Positions 27,511-50,690 are shown, counted from the first letter of the stretch. The stretch: DNA of 64,000 bases from an uncultured bacterium (GCA_937930175.1 CALGLP010000009.1:549-64548), one strand, 5' to 3'. Numbers and translations: made by a program. Notes: a model not told the origin generated them from the sequence alone.

Positions 27511-28041
27511 CTAGAGATCTTGGGCAATGGCTTTAAACCATGTCCCCTGGACTTTAAGAATAAGCTCGATTATTTCACGCACCGCGCCATCACCCCCACA
27601 ACGCTTCGTTACCAAATGAACATTCTTTTTGGCTTCGGCCACGGCATTTTTTACCGCAACAGCAAGCCCCACACGTCTTAAGATCTGGCAGTCGGTTAGA
27701 TCATCACCGATAAAACACACATTCTCATCTTTGACATTAAATGCTTTGAGCATCTGTTCATAGGCATCGATCTTCGGATACGCTCCCAAATAAAGCTGAT
27801 CAATATGCAAATAATCCGCGCGAACCTTAACCACCTGCGAATTGCCAGCGGTAATGATCGCCGTCTTAATGCCCGTACGCTTGAGCACCACGATACCATA
27901 ACCATCCTGAACATTAAAACTTTTCATCTCGCGACCCTCACCATCAAAAATAAGATGCCCCTCGGTCAACACGCCATCCACATCCATGGCAAGGACCTTG
28001 ATCTTGTGAATCCGTTTTTTAAGTTTCGGCGTTATCTTCAT
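27511..28041 (-). CDS. kdsC: 3-deoxy-D-manno-octulosonate 8-phosphate phosphatase
   Basis: 176 aa HAD phosphatase with a DVDGVLT motif. Typical KdsC size, within the kds cluster. Confidence 0.9.
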   Translation of the reverse strand: MKITPKLKKRIHKIKVLAMDVDGVLTEGHLIFDGEGREMKSFNVQDGYGIVVLKRTGIKTAIITAGNSQVVKVRADYLHIDQLYLGAYPKIDAYEQMLKAFNVKDENVCFIGDDLTDCQILRRVGLAVAVKNAVAEAKKNVHLVTKRCGGDGAVREIIELILKVQGTWFKAIAQDL

Positions 28042-29001
28042 TTAAACAATCCCTGCTTTCAATAAATCCTGAACATCCAGCAAGCCAACCGATTTTCCAT
28101 GCGCATCCACAACCGGAACCTCATCAATACGCTTTTCTTCCAAAAGGCGTAAGGCCTCAGCCGCCAGATGATCCTGCACGATCGTTGTTGGAGTTTTAGT
28201 CATCACCGTTTTAACTTGGTCATTTAAAAAGGCGGATCCTGATTTCAGATGACGACGCAAATCTCCATCTGTAAAGATCCCTAAAAGTTTTCCTTTCAAG
28301 TCCACAACACACGCAGATCCGCATCGAAACTTGGTAATGGCAAACAAAACATCCTTAACCTTGGCATTCGGCTTAACCTTAGGGTATTGTTGACCCTTAC
28401 GCATAATATCTTCCACTTTAAGAAGAAGGTTGCGCCCCAGTGACCCACCCGGATGGAAAAAAGCAAAATCTTCACGACGAAATCCCTTCGCATCGATCAA
28501 ACACGCCGCTAAGGCATCGCCTAAGACAAGAGTCACCGTGGTTGACGCCATCGGCGCAAGGCCCAAAGGACACCCCTCTTTGACAACCGCTGTATTTAAC
28601 ACAACATCGCAATAACGCCCCAACGCCGAAGAAGGATTTCCTGTCATCGCAATTGACTTGATCCCAATTTTTTTAAGTAGCGGCAACAAGCTTTTTGTTT
28701 CTTCCGTTTCGCCGCTATGTGAAATAAGAATAACAATGTCCGCTTTTGTCACCTGACCCAGATCGCCGTGCAGGGCTTCCGCGGCATGCAGCCAGGTGGA
28801 TGGCGTTCCCGTCGATGACAAAGTGGCTGAAATTTTACGTCCAATCAAACCGGTCTTTCCCATCCCTGAAACAATGACGCGCCCCTGACACTTCGCCATC
28901 AATTTAACGGCTTTGACAAAATCTTGGCCAAGACGCTTTTTAAGTTGCGTCATCGCTTGGATTTCTGCGTCAATCACATTCTTAGCTCGTGTTAAAACCA
29001 T
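28042..29001 (-). CDS. kdsD: Arabinose-5-phosphate isomerase (SIS + tandem CBS)
   Basis: Start at the ATG at 28999-29001 with an AGAGGG Shine-Dalgarno. The SIS domain (VIVSGMGKTG, SHSGET) and two CBS domains are present. Confidence 0.88.
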   Translation of the reverse strand: MVLTRAKNVIDAEIQAMTQLKKRLGQDFVKAVKLMAKCQGRVIVSGMGKTGLIGRKISATLSSTGTPSTWLHAAEALHGDLGQVTKADIVILISHSGETEETKSLLPLLKKIGIKSIAMTGNPSSALGRYCDVVLNTAVVKEGCPLGLAPMASTTVTLVLGDALAACLIDAKGFRREDFAFFHPGGSLGRNLLLKVEDIMRKGQQYPKVKPNAKVKDVLFAITKFRCGSACVVDLKGKLLGIFTDGDLRRHLKSGSAFLNDQVKTVMTKTPTTIVQDHLAAEALRLLEEKRIDEVPVVDAHGKSVGLLDVQDLLKAGIV

Positions 29002-29008
29002 ACGCCCT

Positions 29009-29839
29009 CTATCGGTTCGATGTTTTGACAATTTTATCAATTTGCTTTAGTTCCTTGAGCAGTCCTTTGAGTCGTAAAAGTGGTAACGAATTGGGCCCAT
29101 CCGAAAGTGCCTCTTTGGGATGCGGATGCACCTCTAAAAACAACGCCCCAACGCCGGCGGCAATAGCACAACGCGAGAGAAGTGGAACATAATCACTATT
29201 ACCACCCGAACATTCCCCTTGGCCACCAGGCTGCTGGACGCTATGCGTGGCGTCATAAACGACCGGATATCCTGTTTGTTGCATGATCTCAAGGGATCGA
29301 AAATCACTCACAAGATTGTTATAACCAAACATCACGCCGCGCTCGGTTAGAAGAATTTTCTTGTTTCCCTGCGCTTCAATCTTTTTAATCACCTGCGCGA
29401 TATCCCAGGGCGCTAAAAACTGACCCTTTTTGACATTGACGATCTTTTGCGTTTTGGCAACTTCAACAATGAAATCAGTTTGACGACACAAAAACGCAGG
29501 AATCTGAATAATATCTAAAACTTGCGCCGCAGGAGCGACCTCTGAAATCATATGCACATCGCTTAAGATCGGAACACCAATAGCTTGCTTGATATCCTGG
29601 AGAACCGCCAACCCCTTAACAAGCCCAGGACCGCGAAAGGCATTTAATGACGTACGATTGGCCTTATCATAACTTGCCTTAAAAATAAAAGGGACACCCA
29701 CCTCATCCGCGACTTGTTTTAACGTCTTCGCAAGCCGCAGCGCAAAAGTCCGTCCTTCGATCACGCAAGGACCTGCAATCAAAACAAAGGGATTGCTCCC
29801 GCCAATCTTTATTTTTCCTATCGTAATCGTCTTGTTCAT
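29009..29839 (-). CDS. kdsA: 2-dehydro-3-deoxyphosphooctonate aldolase (KDO8P synthase)
   Basis: 276 aa starting MNKTITIGKIKIGGSNPFVLIAGPCVIE..., with a DAHP/KDO8P synthase fold. Confidence 0.93.
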   Translation of the reverse strand: MNKTITIGKIKIGGSNPFVLIAGPCVIEGRTFALRLAKTLKQVADEVGVPFIFKASYDKANRTSLNAFRGPGLVKGLAVLQDIKQAIGVPILSDVHMISEVAPAAQVLDIIQIPAFLCRQTDFIVEVAKTQKIVNVKKGQFLAPWDIAQVIKKIEAQGNKKILLTERGVMFGYNNLVSDFRSLEIMQQTGYPVVYDATHSVQQPGGQGECSGGNSDYVPLLSRCAIAAGVGALFLEVHPHPKEALSDGPNSLPLLRLKGLLKELKQIDKIVKTSNR

Positions 29840-30576
29840 TTTTTTAGCTTTCGTAAGAATATTTTGACCTTCTCAAGATCTTCGGCAGTGTCCACGCTCA
29901 TTGTTTCCTTGTCGGTTTCAATAACCCTGATCTTGTACCCTGCCTCAAGGACCCGAAGCTGTTCAAGTTTTTCTGTTTCTTCCAGGATGGACTTGGGCAA
30001 TTTATTAAAACTCATCAAGAAACTTTTCTGGTAGGCATAGATCCCCAAATGCTTATAATAAACACGGCTTCCGAAAGAAACTGCATCACGATTAAACGGG
30101 ATGACTGAACGCGAAAAATAAAGCGCGTAACCTTTTCGGTCAACAACAACCTTCACCACATTGGGATTAATTAAATCTTCTTCTTCCTCAATGCGCTTGA
30201 TGATCGTTGCCACCGATGCTTGCTTTTCTTTCCACAAGGTCGTTATCAATCCATCGATCATGCCTGGATCGATCAGGGGTTCATCCCCTTGAATATTAAT
30301 GATATACGCGGCACTCAAATCCTTGACCGCCTCAATAATGCGATCGGATCCTGACGAGCATTCAGGGCTTGTCATCAAAACCTTGGCGCCAAATCCTTCA
30401 CAGGCAAGTTTTACTCGCTCATCATCGGTTGCCACAAAAAGCCCATCGAGATGCTTGGCTTTCGCCGCACGCTCCCAAACATGCTGGATCAATGGCTTAC
30501 CCAAAAGATCCGCTAAAACCTTTGCCTTGAATCGAGTGGATCCGTATCGCGCAGGAATAACGCCAATAGCCTTCAT
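29836..30576 (-). CDS. kdsB: 3-deoxy-manno-octulosonate cytidylyltransferase (CMP-KDO synthetase)
   Basis: 246 aa starting MKAIGVIPARYGSTRFKAK, with an IQGDEP motif. Confidence 0.93.
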   Translation of the reverse strand: MKAIGVIPARYGSTRFKAKVLADLLGKPLIQHVWERAAKAKHLDGLFVATDDERVKLACEGFGAKVLMTSPECSSGSDRIIEAVKDLSAAYIINIQGDEPLIDPGMIDGLITTLWKEKQASVATIIKRIEEEEDLINPNVVKVVVDRKGYALYFSRSVIPFNRDAVSFGSRVYYKHLGIYAYQKSFLMSFNKLPKSILEETEKLEQLRVLEAGYKIRVIETDKETMSVDTAEDLEKVKIFLRKLKK

Positions 30577-31604: not shown

Positions 31605-31958
31605 AGAAAGGTTAAAAAATAATACTATTATTGATGACAGAAGGAGTTAGGAGCCAACATAGGACCCAACCAAAGAGCCGATTTTAGCATAGTTTTAAAA
31701 TGCCGTCAAATGGTTTACAGGGACGCTTTGCTTCTAGGACATATTCTATTCCCCCTAAACAGATTTAATTTATAAAGAATGTCTTCTAGCAAAAAACAAG
31801 GCATTTTCTATTCGAACATGATTAACTGCATACTTTAGACAGCAGATGGACAATTCGCCAGAATATGCTATCCTTTTGTTATTGGAGAGGGGGTGTTTAT
31901 CACCATCCGCGGAAGCGTTTTTGTAGACTTCTTGCTTTTTATTGAAAGGACAAAATTG

Positions 31959-37428: not shown

Positions 37429-38484
37429 CTACCCATCCTGCTTGGCACTTAAGATTTTATCAGCTGCTTGAAGAACATGCAAAACAGAAATTGCCTTGAG
37501 GCATTTAAAGCCTAATTGGCAGCGATGCGCCAAACATCGCCGACAACCAACATCCTCATGCAAGGCAACATCAAGCGCTCCCAGCGGTTTCCATCGCGCT
37601 GGAGAAAGGCCCAGCTGATGGCGTCCAAAAATCGAAATCACCGGGGTTTTAACACCGACAGCCAAATGGACAGGGCCAGAATCATTAGAAATAAGTAACG
37701 TGCAACGCTTGAGAACGCTGATGAGCTGGCTTAAAGTTGTCTTTCCTGCCAGATCTATCGGGGGTTGTTTCATGGATTGAAAAACCTCTTGAACAATATG
37801 CTTCTGATCGCGAGAGCCAATGAGCACAATCTTGGCATGGTATTTTTGAGCTATCCTGTCTGCAACTTCACTAAAACGCTCAAATGGCCAACGCTTGGAA
37901 ATACAGCTAGCTCCTGGATGAATCGCAATAAGCGTATCCCTTGGAGCAATACCTTGCTGTTGAAAAAACTCTTGAGCCCATGCCTCCGATTCAGCTTTAA
38001 CATGAACATAAAGATTTCTTTCAACTCCTTCAATGCCTAAATACTTCAAGAGACCCAAGCAATATTCTGCCTCATGGCACTCACCATTGGTACGCGGGTC
38101 AGGATACTGTTCTGTTAATAAAAATCCTAGTTTGTTGTTTTGAAATCCTACGCGCCGAGGAATACCCGCATGAAAAAGCATAAGATTCATCCGGCTTTTT
38201 AAATGATAATTAATCGCTAGATCAAAATTCTTTTTCCTTAGTTTAAAAATGAAACGCCAGAAATTCAAAAATCCCGCGTTAGCTCCCTTTTTATCATAAA
38301 CAATCACTTCGTCAAGCAAAGGACAGCCTTCCACAATATCCTTAGTGAGGGGTGCAACCATCATCGAGATTTTGGCTTTTGGATATGCCTTGCGCAAAGC
38401 CTCGATCACAGGCGTAGTCAGAACCACATCCCCAACGCGATCGGTACGCACGATAAGAATACGATTTAAGTTTGGCTTTCCCAT
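37429..38484 (-). CDS. Glycosyltransferase family 9 (LPS heptosyltransferase-like), paralog 1
   Basis: 351 aa starting ILIVRTDRVGDVVLTTPVIEALRKAYP; a C-terminal GNDSGPVHLA motif is typical of GT9 (WaaC/WaaF/WaaQ). Confidence 0.85.
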   Translation of the reverse strand: MGKPNLNRILIVRTDRVGDVVLTTPVIEALRKAYPKAKISMMVAPLTKDIVEGCPLLDEVIVYDKKGANAGFLNFWRFIFKLRKKNFDLAINYHLKSRMNLMLFHAGIPRRVGFQNNKLGFLLTEQYPDPRTNGECHEAEYCLGLLKYLGIEGVERNLYVHVKAESEAWAQEFFQQQGIAPRDTLIAIHPGASCISKRWPFERFSEVADRIAQKYHAKIVLIGSRDQKHIVQEVFQSMKQPPIDLAGKTTLSQLISVLKRCTLLISNDSGPVHLAVGVKTPVISIFGRHQLGLSPARWKPLGALDVALHEDVGCRRCLAHRCQLGFKCLKAISVLHVLQAADKILSAKQDG

Positions 38485-38485
38485 T

Positions 38486-39442
38486 TTAAAAAATACTTTT
38501 AATCTTGGCTAAAACATCTTTAACCTCAATGCCGCTCATGAATCCTTCGCCATGCTCGCCCTTAGATTGAGTCTGAACAAAAGCACCTTTCGCTCCCCAA
38601 GGCCCATATTTTCGAGGATCGGTTGGCCCAAAAAGTGCCACTACCGGAACATCAAAATAGCTCGCCAAATGCATAACTGCACTATCATTACAAAGCACCA
38701 AATGACTATTGCGCAAAACCCATACAGCCTCCAAAAGAGAAACTCTCCCACAAAGATTCACAACCCCTGGGGGCAATCTGGTAATAACGCGCTCGCTATA
38801 TTCTTTGTCTTGCGCATCCCCTATAAAAAGAATCGGAAGCTTGTATTCATCGATAAGCGCCTGACAAACAGCGACAAAACCATCAACCGTCCATCGCTTT
38901 CGCGTGTCCGCAGCTCCAGGAGATACAACAAAATAACTTTTAGACCATCCAAGGGACGGATGAAAAAGACTTTCCGCGTGTTTACGGATCAGTTCACTAA
39001 TAAAAAGCGCATAGCGCTTTGTAGTAATTTGAGCATCAGGAACAACGCTCTTAAGTCTCAAGAAATGCTGATCCTTTTTATGAAGAGCTAAGGTTTTCTT
39101 CATCAATACCGACGTATGAAATGGCACGCCTAAAAAATACGCAAGCGCGGTATTGCGCAAATCAATAACAAGATCAAAGCGCTCACAATACAATCGTTTA
39201 AACAACAAAAAAAGATCAAACCAAGACTCTTTTTTCGTAAAGATATAAATATTCTTGATATACGGATTCTGATCAAAGAGCGTTCGCGCTTTAGGGCCAA
39301 CGACAAGGGAGACTTCCGCAAGCGGAAACTGCGTGATCACGGCATCGATCGTAGGACATGTCAAGACAACGTCCCCGATGTTTGTCAGGCTAACGATCAA
39401 AATCTTTTTAATACGCGAATTCTCTAATTTTTTGAATAACAT
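38486..39442 (-). CDS. Glycosyltransferase family 9 (heptosyltransferase-like), paralog 2
   Basis: 318 aa starting ILIVSLTNIGDVVLTCPTIDAV; a CNDSAVMHLA motif is present. Confidence 0.85.
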   Translation of the reverse strand: MLFKKLENSRIKKILIVSLTNIGDVVLTCPTIDAVITQFPLAEVSLVVGPKARTLFDQNPYIKNIYIFTKKESWFDLFLLFKRLYCERFDLVIDLRNTALAYFLGVPFHTSVLMKKTLALHKKDQHFLRLKSVVPDAQITTKRYALFISELIRKHAESLFHPSLGWSKSYFVVSPGAADTRKRWTVDGFVAVCQALIDEYKLPILFIGDAQDKEYSERVITRLPPGVVNLCGRVSLLEAVWVLRNSHLVLCNDSAVMHLASYFDVPVVALFGPTDPRKYGPWGAKGAFVQTQSKGEHGEGFMSGIEVKDVLAKIKSIF

Positions 39443-40421
39443 GGTTCACCGTAATGGCCTTCATACAGACATTATCAGGGCATTTTAAATGATAACAAGG
39501 TTTTATATTGCATCCCATCTCATGACGAATAACCATGCTCTTGCCACTGCCACGCGGACCCGTTACAGAAGGATGCGTTGGGCCAAAAAGCCCGATAACG
39601 GATGTTCCGACACTATTGGCCAAATGCAAAGGCCCTGAGTCACCGGAGATGACAACGCTAGCCCTTTGTAAGAGCGCGACAAGCTCCCCAAGGTTTGTCT
39701 TGCCAGCTAAAACAACGGGTTTGCGCGCTGCCAAAGCGCTCACCTCTTGCGCAAGCGCAAGATCATCTTCCCCGCCGCAAACAACAACCTTCGCGTTAAA
39801 ATCACGCGTAAGTGCATCAAAAAGTTTCGCAAAATTCTCAACCGACCATCGCTTCAAATTCCAATTTCCGCCGATATGAACAACCACACAAAAATCTCCC
39901 TCATGAATCTGAAAGCCCGTGAGCATATCCTTAACACGCCTGACAGCCTCTTGATCAACCTCAAGACAAGTCTGACGATTTTTGACAGCAATCCCTAGGG
40001 GCTCAAGAACTTTCAGATAAAGATCGCTGCGATGCACAACTCCCTCATCCATAACAACGCGATGTGTCAACAACCATCCACGTTTCTTTCTATCATACCC
40101 GACACGAATCGGAATACCAGCAAGAAAAACAAGTAACGCCCTTGTCCAAGAGCCATGCAGCAAAAAAACAGCATCAAAGTCTTTGGAGCGAAGATGCGCG
40201 ATCAGTTTAAGTTTACCCCAAAGCGATCGGTCATGGCCTTTCTCATCGTAAACAATAATCTCATCCACATAAGGGACTTGCTTTAAAATGCCCACCACCC
40301 GCGGCAACGCTAAAGCACTCACGCGAGATTGCGGATATGTGTCTTTGATAGCTTGAAAAACAGGGGCTGAAAAAACAATATCCCCCAGCCAATTCACATT
40401 AACAACAAGAATGTTTTTCAT
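39408..40421 (-). CDS. Glycosyltransferase family 9 (heptosyltransferase-like), paralog 3
   Basis: 337 aa starting ILVVNVNWLGDIVFSAPVFQAI; a GDSGPLHLA motif is present. Confidence 0.85.
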   Translation of the reverse strand: MKNILVVNVNWLGDIVFSAPVFQAIKDTYPQSRVSALALPRVVGILKQVPYVDEIIVYDEKGHDRSLWGKLKLIAHLRSKDFDAVFLLHGSWTRALLVFLAGIPIRVGYDRKKRGWLLTHRVVMDEGVVHRSDLYLKVLEPLGIAVKNRQTCLEVDQEAVRRVKDMLTGFQIHEGDFCVVVHIGGNWNLKRWSVENFAKLFDALTRDFNAKVVVCGGEDDLALAQEVSALAARKPVVLAGKTNLGELVALLQRASVVISGDSGPLHLANSVGTSVIGLFGPTHPSVTGPRGSGKSMVIRHEMGCNIKPCYHLKCPDNVCMKAITVNHVIQKIREFAY

Positions 40422-41511
40422 GCGCCATCACTTTTTTGTAAACATTGAGGGTTTGAACAATCATACGTTCAAACGAAAAATTCCTGCAAATAAAATTGTA
40501 AGCCGCTTCTCCAAGTTCAGAACGCTCTTGTTCATTTTCCATAAGATAAATGATCGCTTGACTTAAGCGATCAACATTTTCTTTGGGAACAAGGATCCCT
40601 GTCTTACCGTCTTGAATCAGCGTTGGTAATCCTCCGACGTTGGAAGCAATGACAGCCAAGCCTTGAGCCTGGGCCTCCATTACGGACAACCCCAATCCCT
40701 CTTGGCGCGACGGCATCACAAAAATATCAAAGAAAGGCAACATATTCTGCTCGCCCTGACTCGTGGGAACAAAAAAAACGTTAGACTCAAGTGACAACTG
40801 CTTTGCCAGCGACACGAGCGCCTCCTTCCATTTTCCCTCACCCACGATCACAAGATTCACATCAGGATATTGGCTCACAACTTTTTTCACAGCCTTAATC
40901 AAAATATCTTGGCCTTTAACTTCAGAAAGCCGTGCGACAATACCCACGATCAGCCCAGGCTTCAGCCCCAATTCTTTGCGCTTGTCGTTTTTTCTGATTT
41001 CACTCCAGCCATAACGCTGACTCTCAAGTCCATGGGGAACAAGAAAAACATTTTCTTGCGTGCAGCCAAAATCTTTTTTCAAATGCTCTTCCACCTGTGC
41101 GCTAATGGCGATCACCGCCTTGCCCCAACAAGGAAAAAGGGCACGCACAATCTTTGGCGTAAAAAATCCATGGCAAGTGGTCACATAAGGAACTTTTGTA
41201 AAAAATGATACACACGCGGCCAAAACTTGCGTCACGCGCGTTTGCGCATGGATCACCTCAATATGATTTTGTTTCACCATGTCCATCACATAAGGGACAT
41301 TGCGATAAATTTTCAAGCTTAATTCTGATTTTGTTTTGATATCCAAACTGATATGTTTGGCGCCGATCGCGCTCAAATCGCCCACGCGATCTCCCCCGCT
41401 CGTGGCTATATAAACATGATGGCCTTTTTGCACCAAACCCTTCGCAATACCCAAAACATAACTGGTGATCCCGCCAGTATTAAAATGCGTTGCCAAAATC
41501 AAAATATTCAT
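40399..41511 (-). CDS. Glycosyltransferase family 4 (GT-B, retaining)
   Basis: 370 aa. A C-terminal EGLGLSVMEAQAQGLAVIASNVGG (E-x7-E region) is typical of GT4. Confidence 0.85.
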   Translation of the reverse strand: MNILILATHFNTGGITSYVLGIAKGLVQKGHHVYIATSGGDRVGDLSAIGAKHISLDIKTKSELSLKIYRNVPYVMDMVKQNHIEVIHAQTRVTQVLAACVSFFTKVPYVTTCHGFFTPKIVRALFPCWGKAVIAISAQVEEHLKKDFGCTQENVFLVPHGLESQRYGWSEIRKNDKRKELGLKPGLIVGIVARLSEVKGQDILIKAVKKVVSQYPDVNLVIVGEGKWKEALVSLAKQLSLESNVFFVPTSQGEQNMLPFFDIFVMPSRQEGLGLSVMEAQAQGLAVIASNVGGLPTLIQDGKTGILVPKENVDRLSQAIIYLMENEQERSELGEAAYNFICRNFSFERMIVQTLNVYKKVMAHEKHSCC

Positions 41512-43613
41512 TGGTCCCCTTTCGCCGCAAGACTCTCAATCTCCGCAACAACTTGTTCGGGTGTAATATTTTTCATGCAGATATGTGTCTTGATCGAGCA
41601 TTGGCCCTGATAACACGGCGCACAACTAGGCTTCAAATAAACAACCTTGCATCGGCCTGAAGGCGGAAGATGACGGAAAGGATCTGTGGGCCCAAAAAGC
41701 GCCACAAACGGTGTTTTCATGGCTGCAGCAACATGCATAGGCGCTGAGTCTGGCGTAACAAAAACAGCAGCTTTTTTTATCAGTGCAGCAAGCTGTAGCA
41801 TATTGGTCTTACCGATTAAATCAATCGGCTTTGATTTAGCCAGCATGATAATCGTCCGCGCCAATTCTTTATTCTTTTCAATGCCAGTAAGAAAAACCCT
41901 GATACTTTTCTGCGCGAGCAAATCACAAAGCTTGGCAATGTGCTCTGGAGGCCAATTTTTTGTAAGCCAGCGCTCCGAAGCCGCAATATTGATACCAACA
42001 AGACGCATACCCGAGGCGACCCAAAAACTATCCAAAAGTTGCTGAACCATGCGATGATCTTCTTTGGACGGCCACATCTCGAGCTCGGGCGCGCTATCCA
42101 GCGAAACATCAAGTTCATCCAGAATGCGAAACTGATGTTCCACCGCCGGCAGAGGCCCTTGATCATCTTTGATCCCACAAGAAAGAAGAAATCCCCATTT
42201 TTTATTATGATACCCATAGCGCTCAAGACAAAAGCTTAAGAACCCCAACAAATGACTTTTGCGATTATTTTGAAAGTCAATTACCTTGTCAAAATGGTAC
42301 TGACGTAACATTTTTCCTAACTTCCAAAGTTTCCACCAGCGTTTATGTTTTTGCTTTCGATCATAGATAATCAAATCATCAAGATAAGGGCAACCTTGTA
42401 AAATTTCACGCGCCTCTCTTCCCACAAGACAAAAGATCTTAGCCAGAGGATATTTAGCACGCAAGGCTTTCAAAGACGGCATGATCAACAAAACATCGCC
42501 GACGGCGCTCAACTTAATCACTAGGATGTTCACATGTTCGCAAAGCTCCTGATACACCTTCATCGTCTGGCTTGCCATATGCTCCAACGTATATTGAGAA
42601 AGGATCTTGGCTTTTGCCTTTTCGACCATTTGCCGAGCTAGCGCCTTGTCCTGTAAAATCTTAACGACTGCCTGCGCCATTTCTTCAGGTTCTTTAGGAG
42701 ACACAAGCAACCCCGTCTCACCTTCATCGATCAGTTCCACAACGCCACCAACACGCGTTGCCACAACAGGAACACCTGCCGCTTGCGCTTCTAAGATCAC
42801 GCGGCCAAAAGATTCTTGCGTGACTGTTGAAAGCACCAAAACGTCCACCTGAGAAAGAAGCTGAGGAATATCTTTTCGATTCCCAAGGAACTCAACATGC
42901 TCAGTCAATCCAAGATACTTTGTCAAAGCCAAAAGCCCTTCCTTGTATGATTCTTTTTCAGCCGGAGCATCTCCAATGATCCAAATCTTAACAAACGGCA
43001 TTGTGCGAACAACTCGCGCCATGGCCTTTAAAAAATACTCATGTCCCTTCAAAGGCGTAATGCGACCAACAATCGCAATGGTGGGTCGCGACTTCGCCTG
43101 GGCATCTTCACGGGGAATATCAAATTTTCTTAGATCAACGCTACGGGGAATACAGCGGATGTTTTCCGGCAAGACACCAAAATCTTGGATCATGTGATGG
43201 CCGATCACTTGACTCGGCACAATGACAAGCTTGGACCAACCCATCACAGAGCTAAAAGGGTGCTTAGAATAATACCCATGGCATGTTGTGATAAACGGCG
43301 TTCGTGTTTTGCGGCAAGCAAAATAGGCAATCCAAGCGGGAACCCGAGAACGGGCATGCACAAGATCAACTTTTTCTTTGACCAAAATTTGTTCAAGCTT
43401 ACGCATCGCCCAAAGCATGGTCACAAGATTTTTTTCTTTTACGTTAAGCTGATAATGCTTGCCCCCTGCACCTTCCAAATCCGCAACTAAATCGCCGCCG
43501 CTTGAGACCACAATCGCCTGATGCCCATGCTCGACAAGATAACGGGCAAAATCAACGGTGCCGGTCTCAACGCCTCCAACACGCAAGGCCGGAAGAATTT
43601 GTAATATTTTCAT
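41508..43613 (-). CDS. Bifunctional GT4-GT9 glycosyltransferase fusion
   Basis: 701 aa. The N-terminal ~350 aa are GT4 (ESFGRVILEAQAAGVPVVATRVGG). The C-terminal ~350 aa are GT9 (ILVIKLSAVGDVLLIMPSL ... PDSAPMHVAAA). Confidence 0.8.
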   Translation of the reverse strand: MKILQILPALRVGGVETGTVDFARYLVEHGHQAIVVSSGGDLVADLEGAGGKHYQLNVKEKNLVTMLWAMRKLEQILVKEKVDLVHARSRVPAWIAYFACRKTRTPFITTCHGYYSKHPFSSVMGWSKLVIVPSQVIGHHMIQDFGVLPENIRCIPRSVDLRKFDIPREDAQAKSRPTIAIVGRITPLKGHEYFLKAMARVVRTMPFVKIWIIGDAPAEKESYKEGLLALTKYLGLTEHVEFLGNRKDIPQLLSQVDVLVLSTVTQESFGRVILEAQAAGVPVVATRVGGVVELIDEGETGLLVSPKEPEEMAQAVVKILQDKALARQMVEKAKAKILSQYTLEHMASQTMKVYQELCEHVNILVIKLSAVGDVLLIMPSLKALRAKYPLAKIFCLVGREAREILQGCPYLDDLIIYDRKQKHKRWWKLWKLGKMLRQYHFDKVIDFQNNRKSHLLGFLSFCLERYGYHNKKWGFLLSCGIKDDQGPLPAVEHQFRILDELDVSLDSAPELEMWPSKEDHRMVQQLLDSFWVASGMRLVGINIAASERWLTKNWPPEHIAKLCDLLAQKSIRVFLTGIEKNKELARTIIMLAKSKPIDLIGKTNMLQLAALIKKAAVFVTPDSAPMHVAAAMKTPFVALFGPTDPFRHLPPSGRCKVVYLKPSCAPCYQGQCSIKTHICMKNITPEQVVAEIESLAAKGDQ

Positions 43614-45583
43614 ATGATCCCTCGTGCCGCATCTAATAGGCAGTCTTGTTGATTCACAGATTTTGTCACTAATCGTTCTTTAACAATGCGTTCAATAAGG
43701 CTTCCAAGATTTTGAGGTTTGACAAGAAAAACATGACCATCATCCTCCAGGCGATCAACAAAGCGATCATGCTTAGTAACCTGCCCGACCAGACGCGACG
43801 TAGGCTTAAACACAATGATCGTCTTTCCAGAGCTCACAGCTTCCGAAACCATCGAAATGCTATCCGAGGACACAATCACGATATCCGAAAGCCCCAAGAT
43901 GCCACCAACAGCATCAGGCAAATTATGTTCTTTAGGGAAAACAGCCAGTGGGCATTGTGGAAAACTGCTTAAACTTTCTTTGATCACGGTTTCAACCTCA
44001 AGCGAAGTGCGCCTGGAGGTTGTCAGCAAAAGCTGCCCATGAAGGGCAATAATCACCCCTTTGAGTTGATCCATCATCTCTTGAGCAAAAGCTGGAGAAA
44101 TCATAAAGCGCTTAGAGTCTCCTCCCCAGAAAATACCAATAGTGATAGGCGGCCGATATTGAAGCCTGGAAAATTTCTGCACAAGGCTCTTGGCCTGCTC
44201 CTGAACATAAGCGGGTGTAATCACGCTAGGAGTGATCTTGGTATACAAAACTTTTTTACTTTTAGGAACAAAGAAACCTTTATCATGTTCGGGTAAAACC
44301 ACAAGGTCAAAGCGCTCCACATTCATCATTCCAGGCTTTTGAATCGCAATACTCTTAGCGCGATAATCTTGAGAAAGAAAATAATTGACTCCTGCTGTCG
44401 AAGATCCACACGAGATCACAAAATCCCCTTTCACGCTCATAACTTCTAAAAAAGACTTTCGTTTTAAAAACCACTTGAGATAACGAAGACGGCCCTGCGA
44501 AACCCTGCGATGACTAACAAAACTTATCGCAGAAAAGGCTTTCTCGCGCATACGATTTTTAAACTCAATATCAATCACCTCCAAATGGGCCTTAATACTT
44601 CGCTCCCCTAAAGCCTGCACAACGCTTTGCGCCATCGCCAAGGATTGATGAAGATGCCCCATTTTTTTATCATTTAAGATCACAATCGTGGATTCTTTTG
44701 AGTATTTCCAAATCTTATAAAACCACATATACTCTGAGGGATATTGCCGAATGTACTGCTCCATTGTACGCACAACCGCATCAAGGCTATGGTTAATATT
44801 GGCATCCAGATCACCCTCTTTGTTAAACTCAAGTAATGGGCTAATGATCAAACGATGTTGCGCCCCTAGTTCACGTGTTAAAACACAAAAACACACCGCC
44901 ACATCCAATTTGATTCCCATCTTGATCGCGCCCGTCGACATCGATGCATCACGGCCAAAGAATTTTACCAAGCTTCCCATCTTCCCGCCTTGATCCACAA
45001 CCATGCCAACCATCTCGTTATTGCGTAACGTTTGCACAAAAGCGCGCATCCCAGTTCCAGGATTTAAAAGCCCTGCCCCGGCTTGCTGCCGATAAGAATT
45101 AAGAAGATCATCAAGCTTAGAATAGCGATTTTGAGGATTAACAAGGACCTTATAAGGATGATTGAAAAGGCGTGGAATAAAATTACACAACTCCCAGCTA
45201 CCAAAATGCATCGCAAGAAAAATAACGCCCTTGCCTCTGGCAAGCGCCTGATCAACATATTCACGGCCTTCCACCTTGATCATTTTGTGAGGATCAATCA
45301 CCGGCAGACGTAAAAGCTCGATCACGTTTTGCCCATAGTTTTCAAAAGCCTTACGCAGAATCTTTTTGATTTCACCGGTTTTCTTTTCACGCGCAAAGGC
45401 AATCTTCAAATTCGCGTAAGCAAGCGAACGATGCCGATGATCAAAAGCATAGCTCAACAGTCCAATCATGCGTCCAATAAAAAGCGCAACAGATATGGGT
45501 AAAAGACAAACAACAAAAGCAAAAAACTTAACGAGATAAAGCAATATGTATTCGTTCTTCAAATTCTTTTTCTCCCTTAACAA
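43610..45583 (-). CDS. LpxL/HtrB-family lipid A late acyltransferase fused to an ELM1/DUF1022-like (GT-B-like) domain
   Basis: 657 aa. The N-terminal ~290 aa have a TM anchor and an HFGSWE (Hx4E) motif typical of LpxL/LpxM. The C-terminal ~360 aa resemble the Mito_fiss_Elm1/DUF1022 family. The start may be downstream of 45583. Confidence 0.7.
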   Translation of the reverse strand: MLREKKNLKNEYILLYLVKFFAFVVCLLPISVALFIGRMIGLLSYAFDHRHRSLAYANLKIAFAREKKTGEIKKILRKAFENYGQNVIELLRLPVIDPHKMIKVEGREYVDQALARGKGVIFLAMHFGSWELCNFIPRLFNHPYKVLVNPQNRYSKLDDLLNSYRQQAGAGLLNPGTGMRAFVQTLRNNEMVGMVVDQGGKMGSLVKFFGRDASMSTGAIKMGIKLDVAVCFCVLTRELGAQHRLIISPLLEFNKEGDLDANINHSLDAVVRTMEQYIRQYPSEYMWFYKIWKYSKESTIVILNDKKMGHLHQSLAMAQSVVQALGERSIKAHLEVIDIEFKNRMREKAFSAISFVSHRRVSQGRLRYLKWFLKRKSFLEVMSVKGDFVISCGSSTAGVNYFLSQDYRAKSIAIQKPGMMNVERFDLVVLPEHDKGFFVPKSKKVLYTKITPSVITPAYVQEQAKSLVQKFSRLQYRPPITIGIFWGGDSKRFMISPAFAQEMMDQLKGVIIALHGQLLLTTSRRTSLEVETVIKESLSSFPQCPLAVFPKEHNLPDAVGGILGLSDIVIVSSDSISMVSEAVSSGKTIIVFKPTSRLVGQVTKHDRFVDRLEDDGHVFLVKPQNLGSLIERIVKERLVTKSVNQQDCLLDAARGII

Positions 45584-46586
45584 TCTTAAACGATACCGCT
45601 AATGCAAAAATATCCACGTCTTGTGGAACAAGAACTAGCAGATCCTTTAGCTTCACAGCATCCTTCTGCGTCGTGATCAATGTTTTGATATTTTGCGCTT
45701 GAGCACGCTCAATGATACCGTGCACATCTTCTTTGGTATAGACATGATGATCTAAAAAAGAAACAGCACCCTGGACGTTAACGCCCAGGGTACCAACTGT
45801 TTTTTCAAAAGCCTGAGGATTCCCAATCGCCGAAAACAAAACCACGGGCAAAACCTTTATTTCTGAAATCTCCTTGTCTTGCATCCTATTTTTTAAATTT
45901 ACAAGCTTTGTTGGCTCATAAATGCTTTCAACAATAATCGCATGATAATTATTTTTCTTAACCGTCGTATAAATTTGTCTAAGGCCTTCTTGAGCCAAAT
46001 CGGTCTTAGTTAAAACAATAATATCGGCGCGCTTCAAGGCAGACAACGGCTCACGCAGAATTCCGCGCGGCAGACAAAAACCATTGCCAAAAGGATTCGT
46101 AGTATCAATCACCACGATCTCAAGATCACGATCTATCGACCAGTGCTGAAATCCGTCATCAAGAATAAAGGCATCAATAGGACAATGTCCGCTCAAGGCC
46201 TTTGTGCCAGATGCAAAACGGTTTCTTCCCTGCACGATGCGAACCTCTGGCAAAATTTCGCGATAAAGCTCAACCTCGTCAGAAATACCATTTTCTGCCA
46301 TATAGCCACGAATAAGAATAACAGGTTCCAAGCCCTTTTCTTTAAGATGCGCTGCCAGAAAACCTGTTAACGGGGTCTTGCCTGTTCCACCAACGGTTAA
46401 ATTTCCAATGCTGATAACAGGCCTGGGAAGATGATTCTTTCTCAATAAATTATTCTGATAGAGCCAAAAAATAATCCGCGCTGTACCAACATAACACAAC
46501 GACAAAACCCACAACAATCCCTTCAGGACTTTGGCCGGGAAATTCTTTTGATCTTCGTTAATAAAATGATAAAAAAAAGATTTCAT
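45528..46586 (-). CDS. lpxK: Tetraacyldisaccharide 4'-kinase
   Basis: P-loop ISIGNLTVGGTGKTP, typical LpxK. The start was chosen at MKSFFYHF to avoid overlap with waaA. Confidence 0.88.
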   Translation of the reverse strand: MKSFFYHFINEDQKNFPAKVLKGLLWVLSLCYVGTARIIFWLYQNNLLRKNHLPRPVISIGNLTVGGTGKTPLTGFLAAHLKEKGLEPVILIRGYMAENGISDEVELYREILPEVRIVQGRNRFASGTKALSGHCPIDAFILDDGFQHWSIDRDLEIVVIDTTNPFGNGFCLPRGILREPLSALKRADIIVLTKTDLAQEGLRQIYTTVKKNNYHAIIVESIYEPTKLVNLKNRMQDKEISEIKVLPVVLFSAIGNPQAFEKTVGTLGVNVQGAVSFLDHHVYTKEDVHGIIERAQAQNIKTLITTQKDAVKLKDLLVLVPQDVDIFALAVSFKIVKGEKEFEERIHIALSR

Positions 46587-46593
46587 AAATCGC

Positions 46594-47847
46594 TTAACCC
46601 ATAATTTCTGAAACAAGCGCAAAAGTTTTTTCTGTGGCCCCCTTGTTCGCTTTAATAACAGCCTGGGCATTGGCCCCCAGCTTTTGCCTCAACCCTTGAT
46701 CATTGAAAAGCTTAGCGATAACCTCTTGGAGATGAACTTTATCCTTAACCTGAACCAAGGCATCATGATCTAAGAAAAGCTTAGTGATATCACGAAAGTT
46801 TTGCATAAATGGCCCAACGACAATTGGCTTGCCATAATACGCAGGCTCAATAATATTATGACCTCCCTGCACTGTTAAACTTTTTCCCAGAAAAACAACA
46901 TCGGCTAACGCATAAAACGAACGCAAATGACCAATGGTGTCAACGACAACAACGGCTGGCGCAACAAAGGCCTTACTCACTTGCGAAAACTTAACAGCGC
47001 TAAAACCTTTTCTCTCGCAAAGACTCATGATCTCACCCGCGCGATCAGGATGTCGCGGCGCAAGAACAAGGACAAGGGGAGAAATCTGTGCCTTAAGCGC
47101 ACAAACAATATCAAGTAAGATTTCTTCTTCGCCAGGATGTGTGCTGCCAGCAACAAGCACCATGTTGCTATCCCTAAGCATGGCGTGAGACAATTCATGG
47201 CGACTCTCACCCACAACATCATCAAATTTCATGTTTCCGACAACAAAAACTTTTTCTTCCAAAGCCCCCAGCTCCTTGATACGACTAGCATCTGACTCGC
47301 TTTGCATACAAAAACAATCAACACATGCTAAAACAGGACGCAAGAGACACTTAAGAAATTTATACCCCTTCAAGGCCTTGTCAGATATGCGGCCATTAAC
47401 TTGTACAATCGGAATCGAGCGCTTGTGGAGCTCTGTCAACAAATTAGGCCAGATTTCAGTTTCGGCATTAAGATAAATGCTAGGCTGCAAGAGATCCAAA
47501 TATTGACGCACAGCAAAACTTAAATCCAGAGGCGCGTAAATAACTCTTTCATCCCCTTCGAGTTTTGTCTTGGCTAACTCAAAACCTGTTTGCGTCACAA
47601 CCGAGATCACAATCTGATGATCAGAATAGCGCGTCCTCATCTTTTTAAGAAGGTTCGAAACAACCATCACCTCCCCGACACTTACCGCATGGATCCAAAT
47701 CCTTTTTTTTCCAACGAGCCCAAGTTTTTGCGCACTTAAGAAACCAAAACGCGTCCCAAAATCTTTGTGCCATTTTCGCTTGAGCAAAAGATAAGGCACA
47801 TAAAGTAATGAAAAAAGGATAAAAAGAAAATCGTACAATAAAGCCAT
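46594..47847 (-). CDS. waaA: 3-deoxy-D-manno-octulosonic acid (Kdo) transferase
   Basis: 417 aa with an N-terminal membrane anchor followed by IWIHAVSVGE, typical of KdtA/WaaA. Confidence 0.9.
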   Translation of the reverse strand: MALLYDFLFILFSLLYVPYLLLKRKWHKDFGTRFGFLSAQKLGLVGKKRIWIHAVSVGEVMVVSNLLKKMRTRYSDHQIVISVVTQTGFELAKTKLEGDERVIYAPLDLSFAVRQYLDLLQPSIYLNAETEIWPNLLTELHKRSIPIVQVNGRISDKALKGYKFLKCLLRPVLACVDCFCMQSESDASRIKELGALEEKVFVVGNMKFDDVVGESRHELSHAMLRDSNMVLVAGSTHPGEEEILLDIVCALKAQISPLVLVLAPRHPDRAGEIMSLCERKGFSAVKFSQVSKAFVAPAVVVVDTIGHLRSFYALADVVFLGKSLTVQGGHNIIEPAYYGKPIVVGPFMQNFRDITKLFLDHDALVQVKDKVHLQEVIAKLFNDQGLRQKLGANAQAVIKANKGATEKTFALVSEIMG

Positions 47848-47848
47848 G

Positions 47849-48709
47849 CTATGCCCGCGGGTGCGCCTTGTTATAAATATTCTTAAGTTTTTCCGTTGTC
47901 ATGTGGGTATAAATCTGCGTTGTTGAAAGATTAACGTGGCCCAGCAATTCCTGAACAGAACGTAAATCAGCGCCCGCATTTAACAAATGCGTGGCAAAGG
48001 AATGCCGCAAGGCATGCGGCGACATCTTGCTTTGAATACTGGCCTTCAAAATATATTTGTTGAGGATGTTGCGCACACTTCGATCCGTTAAGCGCCTTCC
48101 ATGATGATTCAAAAAAACAGCATCGGATTTATGTTCACGCGTGTCAACGTATTCTTTAACCGCTTTCAACGCTGTTTCGCCAATGGGCAGAAGCCGCTCT
48201 TTTTTTCCTTTGCCCAGAACCTTCACAATATTACTGATAAAATCAACACGATCAAGATTAAGCGACACGAGTTCACTCACGCGCATACCCGTACTATACA
48301 GAGTTTCCAAAATCGCATGATCCCGTAAGCCTGCCTCATCGCGATCAATCACCGCATCCACAAGACGCGTGGCATCCATTTCCGACAAAAATTTAGGGAG
48401 TTTCTTGTCCAGCTTAGGCGTCATCAAAAGCGTTGAAGGGTTTTTCTTCACCAATCCCTCGCGAAACAGAAATTTAAAAAAGCTTCGCAAGGACGATAAT
48501 TTACGCGCGACGGTACGCGTCTTTAGATTTTTGCTTCGCAAGTTTCCCAGATAACGCCGCAGATGAAAATAATCCACGCGTTCAATGGGCGTCTCCTGCA
48601 GATAAAGAAAAAACTCTTCTAAGTCAATCTTGTAGTTTAAGAGGGTATGTTTAGAATAATTCTTTTCAATATCCAGATACGATATGAATTTCTCAACGTA
48701 TCGGTTCAT
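47849..48709 (-). CDS. Tyrosine recombinase XerC/XerD family
   Basis: Start at MNRYVEKFISYLDIE.... The C-terminal catalytic motifs HALRHSFATHLL and LGHVNLSTTQIYTHM (R-H-R-Y) are present. It sits within a housekeeping operon. Confidence 0.85.
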   Translation of the reverse strand: MNRYVEKFISYLDIEKNYSKHTLLNYKIDLEEFFLYLQETPIERVDYFHLRRYLGNLRSKNLKTRTVARKLSSLRSFFKFLFREGLVKKNPSTLLMTPKLDKKLPKFLSEMDATRLVDAVIDRDEAGLRDHAILETLYSTGMRVSELVSLNLDRVDFISNIVKVLGKGKKERLLPIGETALKAVKEYVDTREHKSDAVFLNHHGRRLTDRSVRNILNKYILKASIQSKMSPHALRHSFATHLLNAGADLRSVQELLGHVNLSTTQIYTHMTTEKLKNIYNKAHPRA

Positions 48710-50690
48710 TGTTTGTGGTTGGTTGATCCTCTTGGGGCAGCTGCCGCGCTGTATAAGTGCACTCAGGGTAACGGCTACACCCATAAAAAGCGGTTCCTCC
48801 GCGTGAGCGACGCTCAACCAATTCTCCAGTGCAATTAGGTTGAGGACATTTGACGCCAGAGGAAAAGGCCTCGGAATGGCGACAGGCTGGAAATCCTGTG
48901 CAACTGATAAATTTCCCTCGACGCCCCCACTTGATGGCTAACGGCTTGCCGCAATCAGGGCATGCGCGGTCAATAAAGGCAGTTGTCTTTTCAATATTTT
49001 GCATCGCATAATCAAGCTCTTCTTTAAACGGAGGATAAAATTCATTCAAAAGATGCAAATACTCCATCTCGCCTTCTTCAATCAAGTCGAGATCATTCTC
49101 CATGGTGGCGGTAAACCCAATATCCATAATCTTGGGAAAATATTCAATAAGCATATCGCAAACCTTTTGCCCTAGCTCCGTCGATGTAAAATAACCCTTA
49201 GCGCGCGACACATAATTGCGGAAAACAAGAGTATGGATAATCGGCGCATACGTGCTGGGCCGACCAATCCCGTCTTCTTCCAGAGCGCGAACAAGCGTCG
49301 CTTCCGAATAATGAGGTGGCGGTTTTGTAAAATGCTGATCCGGATGGACATCGACAAGCTCCAAGAGATCGTTTTTTTCAAAGGCAGAAAAATCAGAACC
49401 CTTTTCCTTGACCTCATCCTCGCGAAAAAGAATAAGACACCCCTCAAATTTGAGCGTCGAAGCAGACGCGCTAAATTCAAAATCACCAGCTGTAATATTG
49501 ATTTTCTTCTGCACAAAAACCGCTGGGGTCATCTGGCAGCTGACAAACCTACGCCAAATCAATTCATAAATTTTATACTGCTCCTCCGTCAGGAAAGCCT
49601 TCACGTCATCCGGCTTACGAAAAACATCCGACGGACGAATGGCCTCATGTGCCTCCTGGGCGCTCTTCTTAGATTTATACACATTAGCTGTCTCTGGTAA
49701 ATACGCCTTATCAAAATTTTCTTGAATATATGTGCGGACCCGTGCCTTAGCTTCGTTGGCAATGTTCACCGAATCCGTGCGCATATAAGTAATCAAACCA
49801 ACGGTTTCCCCATCGCCTAAATCAACGCCTTCATAAAGGCCCTGGGCAATCATCATGGTCTTGGCGGTATTAAATCCAAGCTTGTTAAAGGCCTCCTGCT
49901 GCAAAGTGCTGGTGATAAACGGCGGCAAGGGATTGCGACGGACATCTTTTTCAGAAATATCCGCAACCACAAAAGTTTGCGCCTTGATTTGCGCAGACAC
50001 CTCTTGCGCCTGCTCTTGCGAAACCATCTCTGGCTTTACTTTCTTTATCTTTTCAAGAGAAGCAGATAAAACTTGCGGATTCCCTGGTTTCTTAACATCA
50101 ATGCTGATGTCCCAATATTCCTGAGGAATAAATGCGGCAATGGCGCGATCACGATCCACGATCAACCGAAGGGCAACCGATTGCACGCGCCCAGCACTTA
50201 AACCTGAGCCAACCTTTTTCCATAAAAGCGGGCTCAGCTGATAACCAACCAAACGATCCATAACACGACGAGCTGTTTGCGCTTCGATCTTCTTGGCATC
50301 AAATTCACGCACATGGTCAAAGGCTTTCAAAACAGCTTCTTTGGTAATTTCGTGGAAGACAACGCGAAAAACTTTTTTGTCTTCCCGTATTTCTTGGGCT
50401 AAATTCCAGCCAATAGCTTCTCCTTCGCGATCAGGATCCGTCGCGATATAAATTTCTTTTTTACCTTTAGCATCAGCCTTGAGTTTTTTTAACGTCGGAC
50501 GCTTGGCACGGATGACAATGAGCTTTGGCTTAAACTCATTTTCAATATCAATGCCTAAGGTTGACTTCGGGAGATCAATCACATGCCCCATGGACGAAAC
50601 AACCTTGTATTGATCACCCAAGATCTTATTAATAGTCTTGACCTTGGCTGGAGACTCGACAACAACAAGACATTTTGCAGATTTAGCCAT
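48693..50690 (-). CDS. topA: DNA topoisomerase I
   Basis: 665 aa with a TOPRIM domain (CLVVVESPAKVKTI), the active-site Tyr region and C-terminal Zn-ribbon Cys clusters. Confidence 0.93.
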   Translation of the reverse strand: MAKSAKCLVVVESPAKVKTINKILGDQYKVVSSMGHVIDLPKSTLGIDIENEFKPKLIVIRAKRPTLKKLKADAKGKKEIYIATDPDREGEAIGWNLAQEIREDKKVFRVVFHEITKEAVLKAFDHVREFDAKKIEAQTARRVMDRLVGYQLSPLLWKKVGSGLSAGRVQSVALRLIVDRDRAIAAFIPQEYWDISIDVKKPGNPQVLSASLEKIKKVKPEMVSQEQAQEVSAQIKAQTFVVADISEKDVRRNPLPPFITSTLQQEAFNKLGFNTAKTMMIAQGLYEGVDLGDGETVGLITYMRTDSVNIANEAKARVRTYIQENFDKAYLPETANVYKSKKSAQEAHEAIRPSDVFRKPDDVKAFLTEEQYKIYELIWRRFVSCQMTPAVFVQKKINITAGDFEFSASASTLKFEGCLILFREDEVKEKGSDFSAFEKNDLLELVDVHPDQHFTKPPPHYSEATLVRALEEDGIGRPSTYAPIIHTLVFRNYVSRAKGYFTSTELGQKVCDMLIEYFPKIMDIGFTATMENDLDLIEEGEMEYLHLLNEFYPPFKEELDYAMQNIEKTTAFIDRACPDCGKPLAIKWGRRGKFISCTGFPACRHSEAFSSGVKCPQPNCTGELVERRSRGGTAFYGCSRYPECTYTARQLPQEDQPTTNNEPIR

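Follow-up and report, generated by a model that had tools for sequence, protein, structure and literature searches.

A lipid A late acyltransferase-family domain fused to an ELM1/KdoT-family glycosyltransferase domain is conserved across Omnitrophota

A gene in a 64,000-nucleotide (nt) stretch of DNA from an uncultured bacterium (GCA_937930175.1 CALGLP010000009.1:549-64548; hereafter the window, with positions counted from its first letter) encodes one protein that joins an LpxL/LpxM-type lipid A late acyltransferase domain to a glycosyltransferase domain of the ELM1 family. This family includes KdoT of Acinetobacter baumannii, a transferase of 3-deoxy-D-manno-oct-2-ulosonic acid (Kdo). The fused protein is the product of a real single gene that is conserved across Omnitrophota and is not an assembly artefact. 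We estimate a probability of roughly 60% that it is a rigid, membrane-anchored bifunctional enzyme of lipopolysaccharide (LPS) assembly, composed of a late acyltransferase and a KdoT-like glycosyltransferase. Within this reading, it is likely that both halves are active and act on a lipid A-Kdo intermediate; the more specific proposal that the C-terminal domain uses cytidine monophosphate (CMP)-Kdo as donor is drawn by analogy and is tentative, somewhat short of an even chance. Each half is a member of an enzyme family already known, and the fusion is not a new kind of system. The literature searched contains nothing relevant on DUF1022 or Omnitrophota LPS and describes neither the fusion, its phylum-wide conservation nor an alternative fusion with LpxK, in keeping with the remark in a sequence-only reading of the window that this is not familiar as a characterized enzyme.

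The open reading frame (ORF) at 43610-45583 on the minus strand is continuous in a translation of the window, with no internal stop and no frameshift. Pfam searches with the 657-aa protein match PF03279 at residues 4-293 and PF06258 at residues 309-619, both far above gathering scores, which confirms the earlier proposal of a fusion in a single polypeptide. Neither of the outcomes named beforehand as refuting that proposal, a C-terminal half without a PF06258 match or a frameshift that betrays two merged genes, was observed. The features of the gene are as follows.

43610..45583, minus strand: whole fused LpxL-ELM1 gene, one ORF of 657 aa (650 aa possible with a start at TTG 45562)
44705..45574, minus strand: LpxL/LpxM-type lipid A late acyltransferase domain, residues 4-293 (PF03279, E = 5.8e-48)
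45449..45547, minus strand: predicted N-terminal hydrophobic membrane anchor, residues 13-45, ILLYLVKFFAFVVCLLPISVALFIGRMIGLL (read from sequence; modelled helices)
45191..45208, minus strand: HFGSWE, residues 126-131, the Hx4E catalytic dyad H126 and E131 (motif and alignment)
44684..44734, minus strand: domain junction EYMWFYKIWKYSKESTI, residues 284-300, without a flexible linker (alignment and model)
43613..44692, minus strand: ELM1/KdoT-family GT-B glycosyltransferase domain, residues 298-657 (PF06258, E = 9.6e-42)
44645..44671, minus strand: D305-x4-H310-x2-Q313 motif, with D8, G12, H13 and Q16 in domain numbering (conservation)
44429..44566, minus strand: basic helical insertion in the acceptor-side half, residues 340-385 (13 K/R versus 3 D/E)
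44282..44287, minus strand: H433-D434 pair, corresponding to KdoT H109-D110 (H433 invariant, D434 conserved in at least 90%)
44006..44017, minus strand: SRRT motif, S523-R524-R525-T526 (invariant in alignments)
43841..43861, minus strand: S575-x2-M578-x2-E581 (SISMVSE), donor-side motif (S575, M578 and E581 invariant)

The earliest available start codon, TTG at 45583, is 56 nt within lpxK, the 3' end of which overlaps the start of the fusion. A second TTG at 45562 has a Shine-Dalgarno-like site (AAGGGAG) 9 nt ahead of it and, judged from these letters, is the more plausible start. Alignments of homologs to the fusion begin between residues 1 and 11, and the choice of start codon leaves the finding of a fusion unaffected. 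Database names cover one half each: 'ELM1/GtrOC1 family putative glycosyltransferase' at NCBI and 'KDO2-lipid IV(A) lauroyltransferase' at JGI.

The match of the N-terminal domain to PF03279 scores 164 bits against a cutoff of 22.3 and spans profile positions 5-294 of 295. In a phmmer comparison with A. baumannii LpxM (5KN7; E = 3.5e-14), HFGSWE, already singled out as an Hx4E motif from the sequence, aligns with HFGTWE of LpxM, for which 5KNK is the catalytic E127A mutant. H126, G128, W130 and E131 are invariant among 64 aligned homologs, the set used for residue conservation, and HxGxWE is present in 277 of 279 full-length fusions, the set used for motif counts. The expected membrane anchor falls in hydrophobic residues 13-45 and is predicted to form helices 2-27 and 30-47 in an AlphaFold2 model. 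Foldseek searches with the full-length model return 5KNK and 5KN7 as best matches (E = 3-5e-14, target template modelling (TM) score 0.67-0.68, 24-25% identity), followed by structures of PatA. Profile, dyad, anchor and predicted fold all place the domain in the LpxL/LpxM/LpxP family. It shares with these enzymes the Pfam family, an N-terminal hydrophobic anchor, the HxGxWE dyad and the best structural match, and differs from them in having an additional 360-aa C-terminal glycosyltransferase and in scoring below every cutoff of the NCBIfam equivalog models for LpxL, LpxM and LpxP (best, NF006270, 138 bits versus 248; TIGR02207, 92 versus 298). Because all of these cutoffs are missed, the domain is placed in the family and not in any of the three sub-types.

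The C-terminal domain matches PF06258 (Mito_fiss_Elm1) with 143.6 bits against a cutoff of 27 across residues 309-619. An AlphaFold2 model of the domain alone (predicted local distance difference test (pLDDT) 94.2, predicted TM score (pTM) 0.90) has two Rossmann-like halves, as in GT-B enzymes. Among 244 PDB matches by Foldseek with E <= 0.001, the best 50 are GT-B glycosyltransferases or 2-epimerases of GT-B fold. The GT-B nature predicted for this half thus holds in the model with a Foldseek probability of 1.0, but the top matches are generic (TreT, OtsA, MGD1 and uridine diphosphate (UDP)-GlcNAc 2-epimerases; TM ∼0.5). Searches of the PDB by sequence and by profile with this domain gave no match, so no solved structure of a sequence relative was found. 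A Rickettsia glycosyltransferase structure, 7MI0, appears among Foldseek matches of the full-length model and was set aside because profile searches do not identify it as a sequence relative.

Conservation in the domain is concentrated in short motifs. Within the fusion family, G309, H310 and Q313 are invariant and D305 is conserved in at least 90% of sequences; S391, N400, K410 and G487-G488 are also invariant. In a broad alignment that adds LpxK-fused and standalone forms as well as ∼320-aa proteobacterial-type members with 20-27% identity, D8, G12, Q16, P-x-H136-D137, G190-G191, SRRT and the S..M..E motif (domain numbering) remain invariant, the histidine-aspartate pair throughout and D8, G12 and Q16 even against the proteobacterial-type proteins. 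Histidine at domain position 13 occurs solely in sequences of the Omnitrophota clade, which agrees with the remark by the authors of the KdoT study that H13 is not conserved outside Acinetobacter (PMC12856342). The exact SRRT is present in 146 of the 150 closest representatives of the domain, and S[RK][RK]T and HxGxWE occur together in 273 of the 279 full-length fusions. A degenerate or pseudo-enzyme C-terminal domain was rejected on these grounds, and, judged from the alignments, both active sites are under joint purifying selection.

The largest insertion in the domain is the basic one, which is predicted to form helices at 344-382, is partly absent from the short proteobacterial-type homologs and may lie at the membrane or at the phosphate surface of lipid A. 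In the LpxK-fused and some standalone ELM1 forms, a cysteine cluster replaces the basic helix at approximately window residues 355-375 (P0126, P0137, P0212 and P0266; e.g., PGCGRCLRCLRFCL, SCRRCMRCLRLCL and KRCNGCNRCIRY); such a variant of the insertion loop might bind a metal or depend on its cysteines in another way.

The two domains meet at residues ∼294-298 (nt ∼44690-44705), where a boundary near nt 44700 had been anticipated. The length of the junction, EYMWFYKIWKYSKE-STI, is unchanged in 63 of the 64 aligned sequences, invariant residues (K290, W292, K293 and Y294) flank it on either side, and 5-8 aa separate the domain envelopes in 270 of the 279 full-length fusions. Identities of the N- and C-terminal domains to the window protein are correlated across homologs (r = 0.93). 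In the full-length AlphaFold2 model (pLDDT 90.9), a pTM of 0.87 for a two-domain protein suggests defined interdomain packing rather than two beads on a string.

The best 120 matches of a protein homolog search, mostly from Omnitrophota, are all ∼650 aa in length and have both Pfam domains, with identities from 79% down to ∼45%. In a scan of one genome per species, which followed up the call for a survey of how widespread the fusion is, at least 80 genomes encode it with 34-67% identity and near full-length coverage. The labels of these genomes read Candidatus Omnitrophota or Omnitrophica, Candidatus Aceula (a genus of Omnitrophota) or, automatically for metagenome-assembled genomes (MAGs), 'uncultured Planctomycetales' or 'bacterium'; the patterns used for the scan were derived from the fusion family itself, so it does not establish absence beyond Omnitrophota. 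A search of 1.84 billion cluster representatives with the C-terminal domain alone yielded 2105 relatives, 215 of them below 1e-30. The closest 150 of the 2105 comprise 118 LpxL-ELM1 fusions (93 complete and 25 ended by the contig), three LpxK-ELM1 fusions, 14 ELM1-only proteins in which the N-terminus of the domain is complete and 15 fragments. Several representatives that seem to be standalone share 90% clusters with ∼650-aa proteins, and most of the seemingly standalone close relatives were therefore discounted as fragments of fusions. A tblastn search of a plasmid collection with the C-terminal domain gave no match.

The location of the fusion is also conserved. As the sequence-only reading had noted, it lies between waaA/lpxK and the heptosyltransferases, and in tblastn searches with window neighbour proteins against 80 loci, the order and orientation topA-xerC-waaA-lpxK-[LpxL-ELM1]-[GT4-GT9]-GT4-GT9-GT9-GT9 are kept nearly everywhere that the contig is long enough (the GT9 region of these loci was detected with standalone-GT9 queries). 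A separate group of ∼35 clusters, in which every named cluster is from Omnitrophota, has an LpxK-ELM1 architecture (examples are L081 8001-10136, L083 8001-10166, P0137, P0212, P0289 and P0304). In two genomes, one with a contig of 1.55 Mb, the corresponding operon is waaA-(CBS, Na/H exchanger)-[LpxK-ELM1]-[GT4-GT9]-GT4-...-GT9x3. These proteins (e.g., P0137 and P0289 on CP070837.1) have in common with the window fusion the ELM1 clade (36-40% identity to its C-terminal domain), SRRT and the slot upstream of GT4-GT9, and differ in that the N-terminal partner is a 4'-kinase instead of an acyltransferase. The ELM1 module and its place upstream of GT4-GT9 are thus constant, whereas the protein joined to its N-terminal side is one or the other of two successive late enzymes of lipid A synthesis. 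Without recourse to the work on Acinetobacter, this alternation links the ELM1 clade to the stage of lipid IVA/Kdo2-lipid IVA.

That work makes outdated the description of ELM1/DUF1022 as a family of unknown bacterial function. A1S_2903 of A. baumannii, named 'ELM1-like mitochondrial fission protein', is the first gene of the outer-core cluster and is needed genetically for a third Kdo (PMC10936431); its position is that of gtrOC1 in the outer-core (OC) locus nomenclature, and GtrOC1 is reported as PF06258. In December 2025, the purified protein was characterized as KdoT, a CMP-Kdo:Kdo2-lipid IVA KdoIII transferase that acts approximately two times faster on the tetra-acylated substrate than on hexa-acylated Kdo2-lipid A (PMC12856342). 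The proposal for KdoT is that of an inverting GT-B enzyme that falls within no named glycosyltransferase family. It requires the arginines of SRRT, R180 being functionally required, and a Rickettsia homolog complements the kdoT mutant. In vivo, KdoT and GnaT, the GT4 enzyme that attaches the following sugar, depend on each other (PMC12856342). The KdoT authors describe their enzyme as structurally similar to WaaA (PMC12856342, PMC10936431).

The C-terminal domain of the fusion shares with KdoT the PF06258 family, the GT-B fold and the motif order D-x4-H, HD, SRRT, matching KdoT D8, H13, H109, D110, R179 and R180; spacing is longer in the fusion because of insertions, chiefly the basic helical one, and the domain is ∼60 aa longer. 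Both are encoded among LPS core genes with a GT4 enzyme next; the GT4 domain immediately downstream of the fusion, in conserved adjacency with an ATGA overlap, is by its position a candidate counterpart of GnaT. KdoT is a standalone peripheral membrane protein of ∼35 kDa, whereas the domain of the fusion is covalently joined to a membrane-anchored acyltransferase. The acceptor of KdoT, Kdo2-lipid IVA, would also be expected for the fusion and is the substrate of LpxL; in the Raetz pathway, tetra-acylated Kdo2-lipid IVA is the canonical LpxL substrate. Lipooligosaccharide (LOS) of Acinetobacter has no heptose, whereas the host of the fusion has four GT9 heptosyltransferase-like domains. WaaA (GT30) likewise has a GT-B fold and possibly has the CMP-Kdo donor and class of lipid acceptor in common with the fusion, but it belongs to another family: the fusion does not match PF04413 and has no profile similarity to the WaaA encoded in the window.

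The results above show the domains, motifs, fold, conservation, gene order and LpxK fusion, and we infer the following substrates, donor sugar, order of steps and any channelling. At the cytoplasmic face of the inner membrane, LpxK and WaaA, encoded upstream, would first yield Kdo2-lipid IVA. The N-terminal domain, through its Hx4E dyad, would add a secondary acyl chain to an intermediate at this stage, presumably from an acyl-acyl carrier protein. The C-terminal domain, as an inverting GT-B enzyme with SRRT, would glycosylate the Kdo region, most likely by adding an extra Kdo from CMP-Kdo by analogy to KdoT of A. baumannii, and the core would then be extended by the GT4-GT9 protein and the GT4 and GT9 enzymes that follow. 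In the fusion, two enzymes with a common substrate would be brought onto a single membrane anchor in one polypeptide. We favor this reading because of the identities of the domains, the jointly kept active sites, the conserved operon, the LpxK fusion, the precedent of KdoT and the CMP-Kdo genes in the window. The earlier proposal of a coupled late modification of lipid A is supported in its coupling of late steps; by analogy, however, it is most likely the Kdo/inner-core region of Kdo2-lipid IVA that is glycosylated, rather than lipid A itself.

Several observations weigh against the reading of a bifunctional acyltransferase and KdoT-like enzyme. The scores below NCBIfam cutoffs for LpxL, LpxM and LpxP leave neither an acyl position nor a chain length assignable to the N-terminal domain. 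The link between the fusion and KdoT is drawn through a shared Pfam family, motifs and their spacing. Comparison of the C-terminal domain with the window WaaA by hhalign has a probability of 0.1 and PF04413 is not matched; PF01075 is not matched either, and the similarity to the donor-binding half of GT9, including that of the SISMVSE region to the DSGPxHLA region of a heptosyltransferase, is local and weak (hhalign E = 0.001, probability 21%). Membership of the domain in GT30 or GT9 was rejected on the same results. LpxL is missing from the LpxK-ELM1 loci of the two genomes, so the two activities are not obligatorily coupled. Outer-core loci of A. baumannii hold further PF06258 paralogs (GtrOC14/19/22), and SRRT is family-wide and invariant in standalone paralogs from unrelated contexts; it thus marks the family and catalytic competence rather than a Kdo donor, and we downgraded it as evidence for the latter. 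Finally, the chemistry of Omnitrophota LPS was not found in the literature searched.

The contexts of those paralogs indicate that the ELM1 family has diversified within Omnitrophota. One MAG (GCA_030698625.1) has two true standalone ELM1 paralogs. The first (L084 5058-8074) runs across the stop codon of a gene for an MsbA-like ABC exporter, in an O-antigen-type cluster that also encodes Wzy_C, GT2, Wzm/Wzt-like proteins and several methyltransferases, and the second (L085 7001-8110) is among radical-SAM and ResB-like genes. An alphaproteobacterial member of the family has no LPS context at all.

This diversity bears on the strongest rival, in which the protein is bifunctional but its ELM1 domain uses a donor other than CMP-Kdo, such as adenosine diphosphate (ADP)-heptose, a UDP-hexose or UDP-uronic acid or another ulosonic acid, and adds a different first branch to the Kdo region or to lipid A. 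The several PF06258 paralogs of A. baumannii outer-core loci and the standalone copies of Omnitrophota presumably differ in specificity; all retain SRRT, and the sole profile similarity of the domain to enzymes of the window is to the donor-binding half of GT9, with none to WaaA. Nevertheless, the sole biochemically characterized member of the family uses CMP-Kdo and is complemented by a distant Rickettsia homolog, the operon places the fused clade at the waaA/lpxK/lpxL stage, and heptose and hexose could already be added by the four GT9 and two GT4 domains present. We consider another donor possible, with odds of about one in four. Rather less likely still, and doubtful, is that the ELM1 domain catalyzes an undescribed first branching glycosylation of Kdo-lipid A, replacing a WaaC-type heptosyltransferase I or adding another acidic sugar, with fusion to LpxL or LpxK imposing channelling or an obligatory order.

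The acceptor of the acyltransferase could also differ. PF03279 includes PatA and proteins of the 'lysophospholipid acyltransferase family', PatA structures rank second structurally and the NCBIfam scores are all below cutoff, so the N-terminal domain could be imagined to acylate a core sugar or another glycolipid, as PatA does for phosphatidylinositol mannosides (PIMs), making the protein an acyl- and glycosyltransferase of a different glycolipid. We regard this as very unlikely given that LpxL and LpxM are the best matches in both sequence and structure, the slot immediately after lpxK and waaA is kept in at least 80 genomes and no second PF03279 gene is present among the window ORFs scanned. 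A non-catalytic C-terminal domain, serving as a scaffold, in membrane targeting or substrate binding or as a regulator that recruits or gates LPS enzymes and leaving the acyltransferase as the sole enzyme, is if anything more improbable. Plant ELM1 is a recruitment factor for dynamin (cited in PMC10936431), a non-enzymatic assisting role was considered by the A. baumannii authors before 2025 (PMC10936431) and single mutants in candidate catalytic bases of KdoT are still active (PMC12856342); against this, purified KdoT alone is a glycosyltransferase in vitro, and ∼20 polar or glycine residues in motifs of the GT-B cleft are invariant across 34-79% identity, a pattern of an active site and unlike that of a scaffold. 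That an error in sequencing or assembly joined two neighboring genes has negligible probability, since no point in its support was found and it is contradicted by the continuous frame, the two-domain homologs of independent assemblies, the presence of the fusion in at least 80 species-level genomes and a conserved junction of fixed length.

The genes of the core operon and those predicted to supply CMP-Kdo are as follows.

46594..47847, minus strand: waaA, Kdo transferase of GT30 (PF04413, E = 1.2e-58; NF004388, E = 8.7e-108)
45528..46670, minus strand: lpxK, tetraacyldisaccharide 4'-kinase (PF02606, E = 1.6e-76; TIGR00682 above cutoff)
41508..43613, minus strand: GT4-GT9 fused glycosyltransferase, GT4 at residues ∼12-358 and GT9 at 362-696 (Pfam, NCBIfam)
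40399-41511, minus strand: GT4 gene (Pfam)
39408-40421, 38486-39442 and 37429-38484, minus strand: three GT9 heptosyltransferase-like genes (Pfam)
27511..30576, minus strand: CMP-Kdo supply cluster (Pfam HAD, SIS+CBS, DAHP_synth_1 and CTP_transf_3; names from domains and clustering)
27511-28041, minus strand: kdsC-like HAD gene (Pfam HAD)
28042-29040, minus strand: kdsD (SIS+CBS)
29009-29839, minus strand: kdsA (DAHP_synth_1)
29836-30576, minus strand: kdsB (CTP_transf_3)

The TGA of the fusion overlaps the ATG of the GT4-GT9 gene, which makes translational coupling between the two genes probable. In the GT4-GT9 protein, the GT9 half passes the cutoff for heptosyltransferase II (TIGR02195). 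Across the four GT9 domains of the window (37429-40421 and 41508-42529), three pass this cutoff and none reaches that for heptosyltransferase I (WaaC), a weak hint that the first branch on KdoI could be a sugar other than heptose, as it is in Acinetobacter. The presence of kdsA, kdsB, kdsC-like and kdsD genes suggests that CMP-Kdo is made in the organism.

Gene fusion is seen elsewhere in these operons. Nearly all 80 related loci, like the LpxK-ELM1 genomes, keep the GT4 and GT9 halves next to each other without a break, and their fusion also appears to be phylum-wide. WaaA-LpxK fusions of ∼780-820 aa with PF04413 and PF02606 occur in Omnitrophota (e.g., P0318 and P0324), and the LPS operon of this group seems unusually prone to gene fusion. 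In the window, a 284-aa ORF at 26644-27498 on the minus strand has an LptC domain (residues 35-166) and an LptA/LptD N-terminal domain (186-266) and, from its domains, would be an LptC-LptA-like fusion; lptB (25941-26744) and kdsC/kdsD/kdsA/kdsB adjoin it.

On the other side of the operon, the topA-xerC pair is ahead of waaA in nearly all related loci. The xerC-like ORF (47849-48817, minus strand), with the first TTG as its listed start, shares 125 nt with the 3' end of topA (48693-50690, minus strand); homolog matches begin later and the true start is probably further downstream. The sole large plus-strand ORF among those annotated (31893-36209) separates the kds/heptose-kinase genes from the core glycosyltransferase operon; its 1438-aa product combines a propeptide and catalytic domain of Peptidase_C25 (gingipain-like) type with Big_9/cadherin-like repeats. 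The remaining genes of the window are ordinary housekeeping genes.

No function was known for the bacterial ELM1-like domain family until December 2025. Fusions of its members to LpxL and LpxK provide independent "Rosetta-stone" genomic support from a distant, mostly uncultured phylum of the Planctomycetes-Verrucomicrobia-Chlamydiae (PVC) group, and place the family at the stage of Kdo2-lipid IVA, matching the biochemistry of KdoT. With them, a step of glycosylation independent of WaaA would be known outside Proteobacteria, in the PVC group, and they correct database names that describe one half of the protein (ELM1 at NCBI and lauroyltransferase at JGI). If the ELM1 domain does catalyze an undescribed branching step, Omnitrophota would have an LPS inner-core architecture of their own. 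We suggest that the LpxL-ELM1 fusion is a natural single-polypeptide system in which to study how late acylation is coordinated with core initiation, and a testable entry point into the envelope biochemistry of Omnitrophota.

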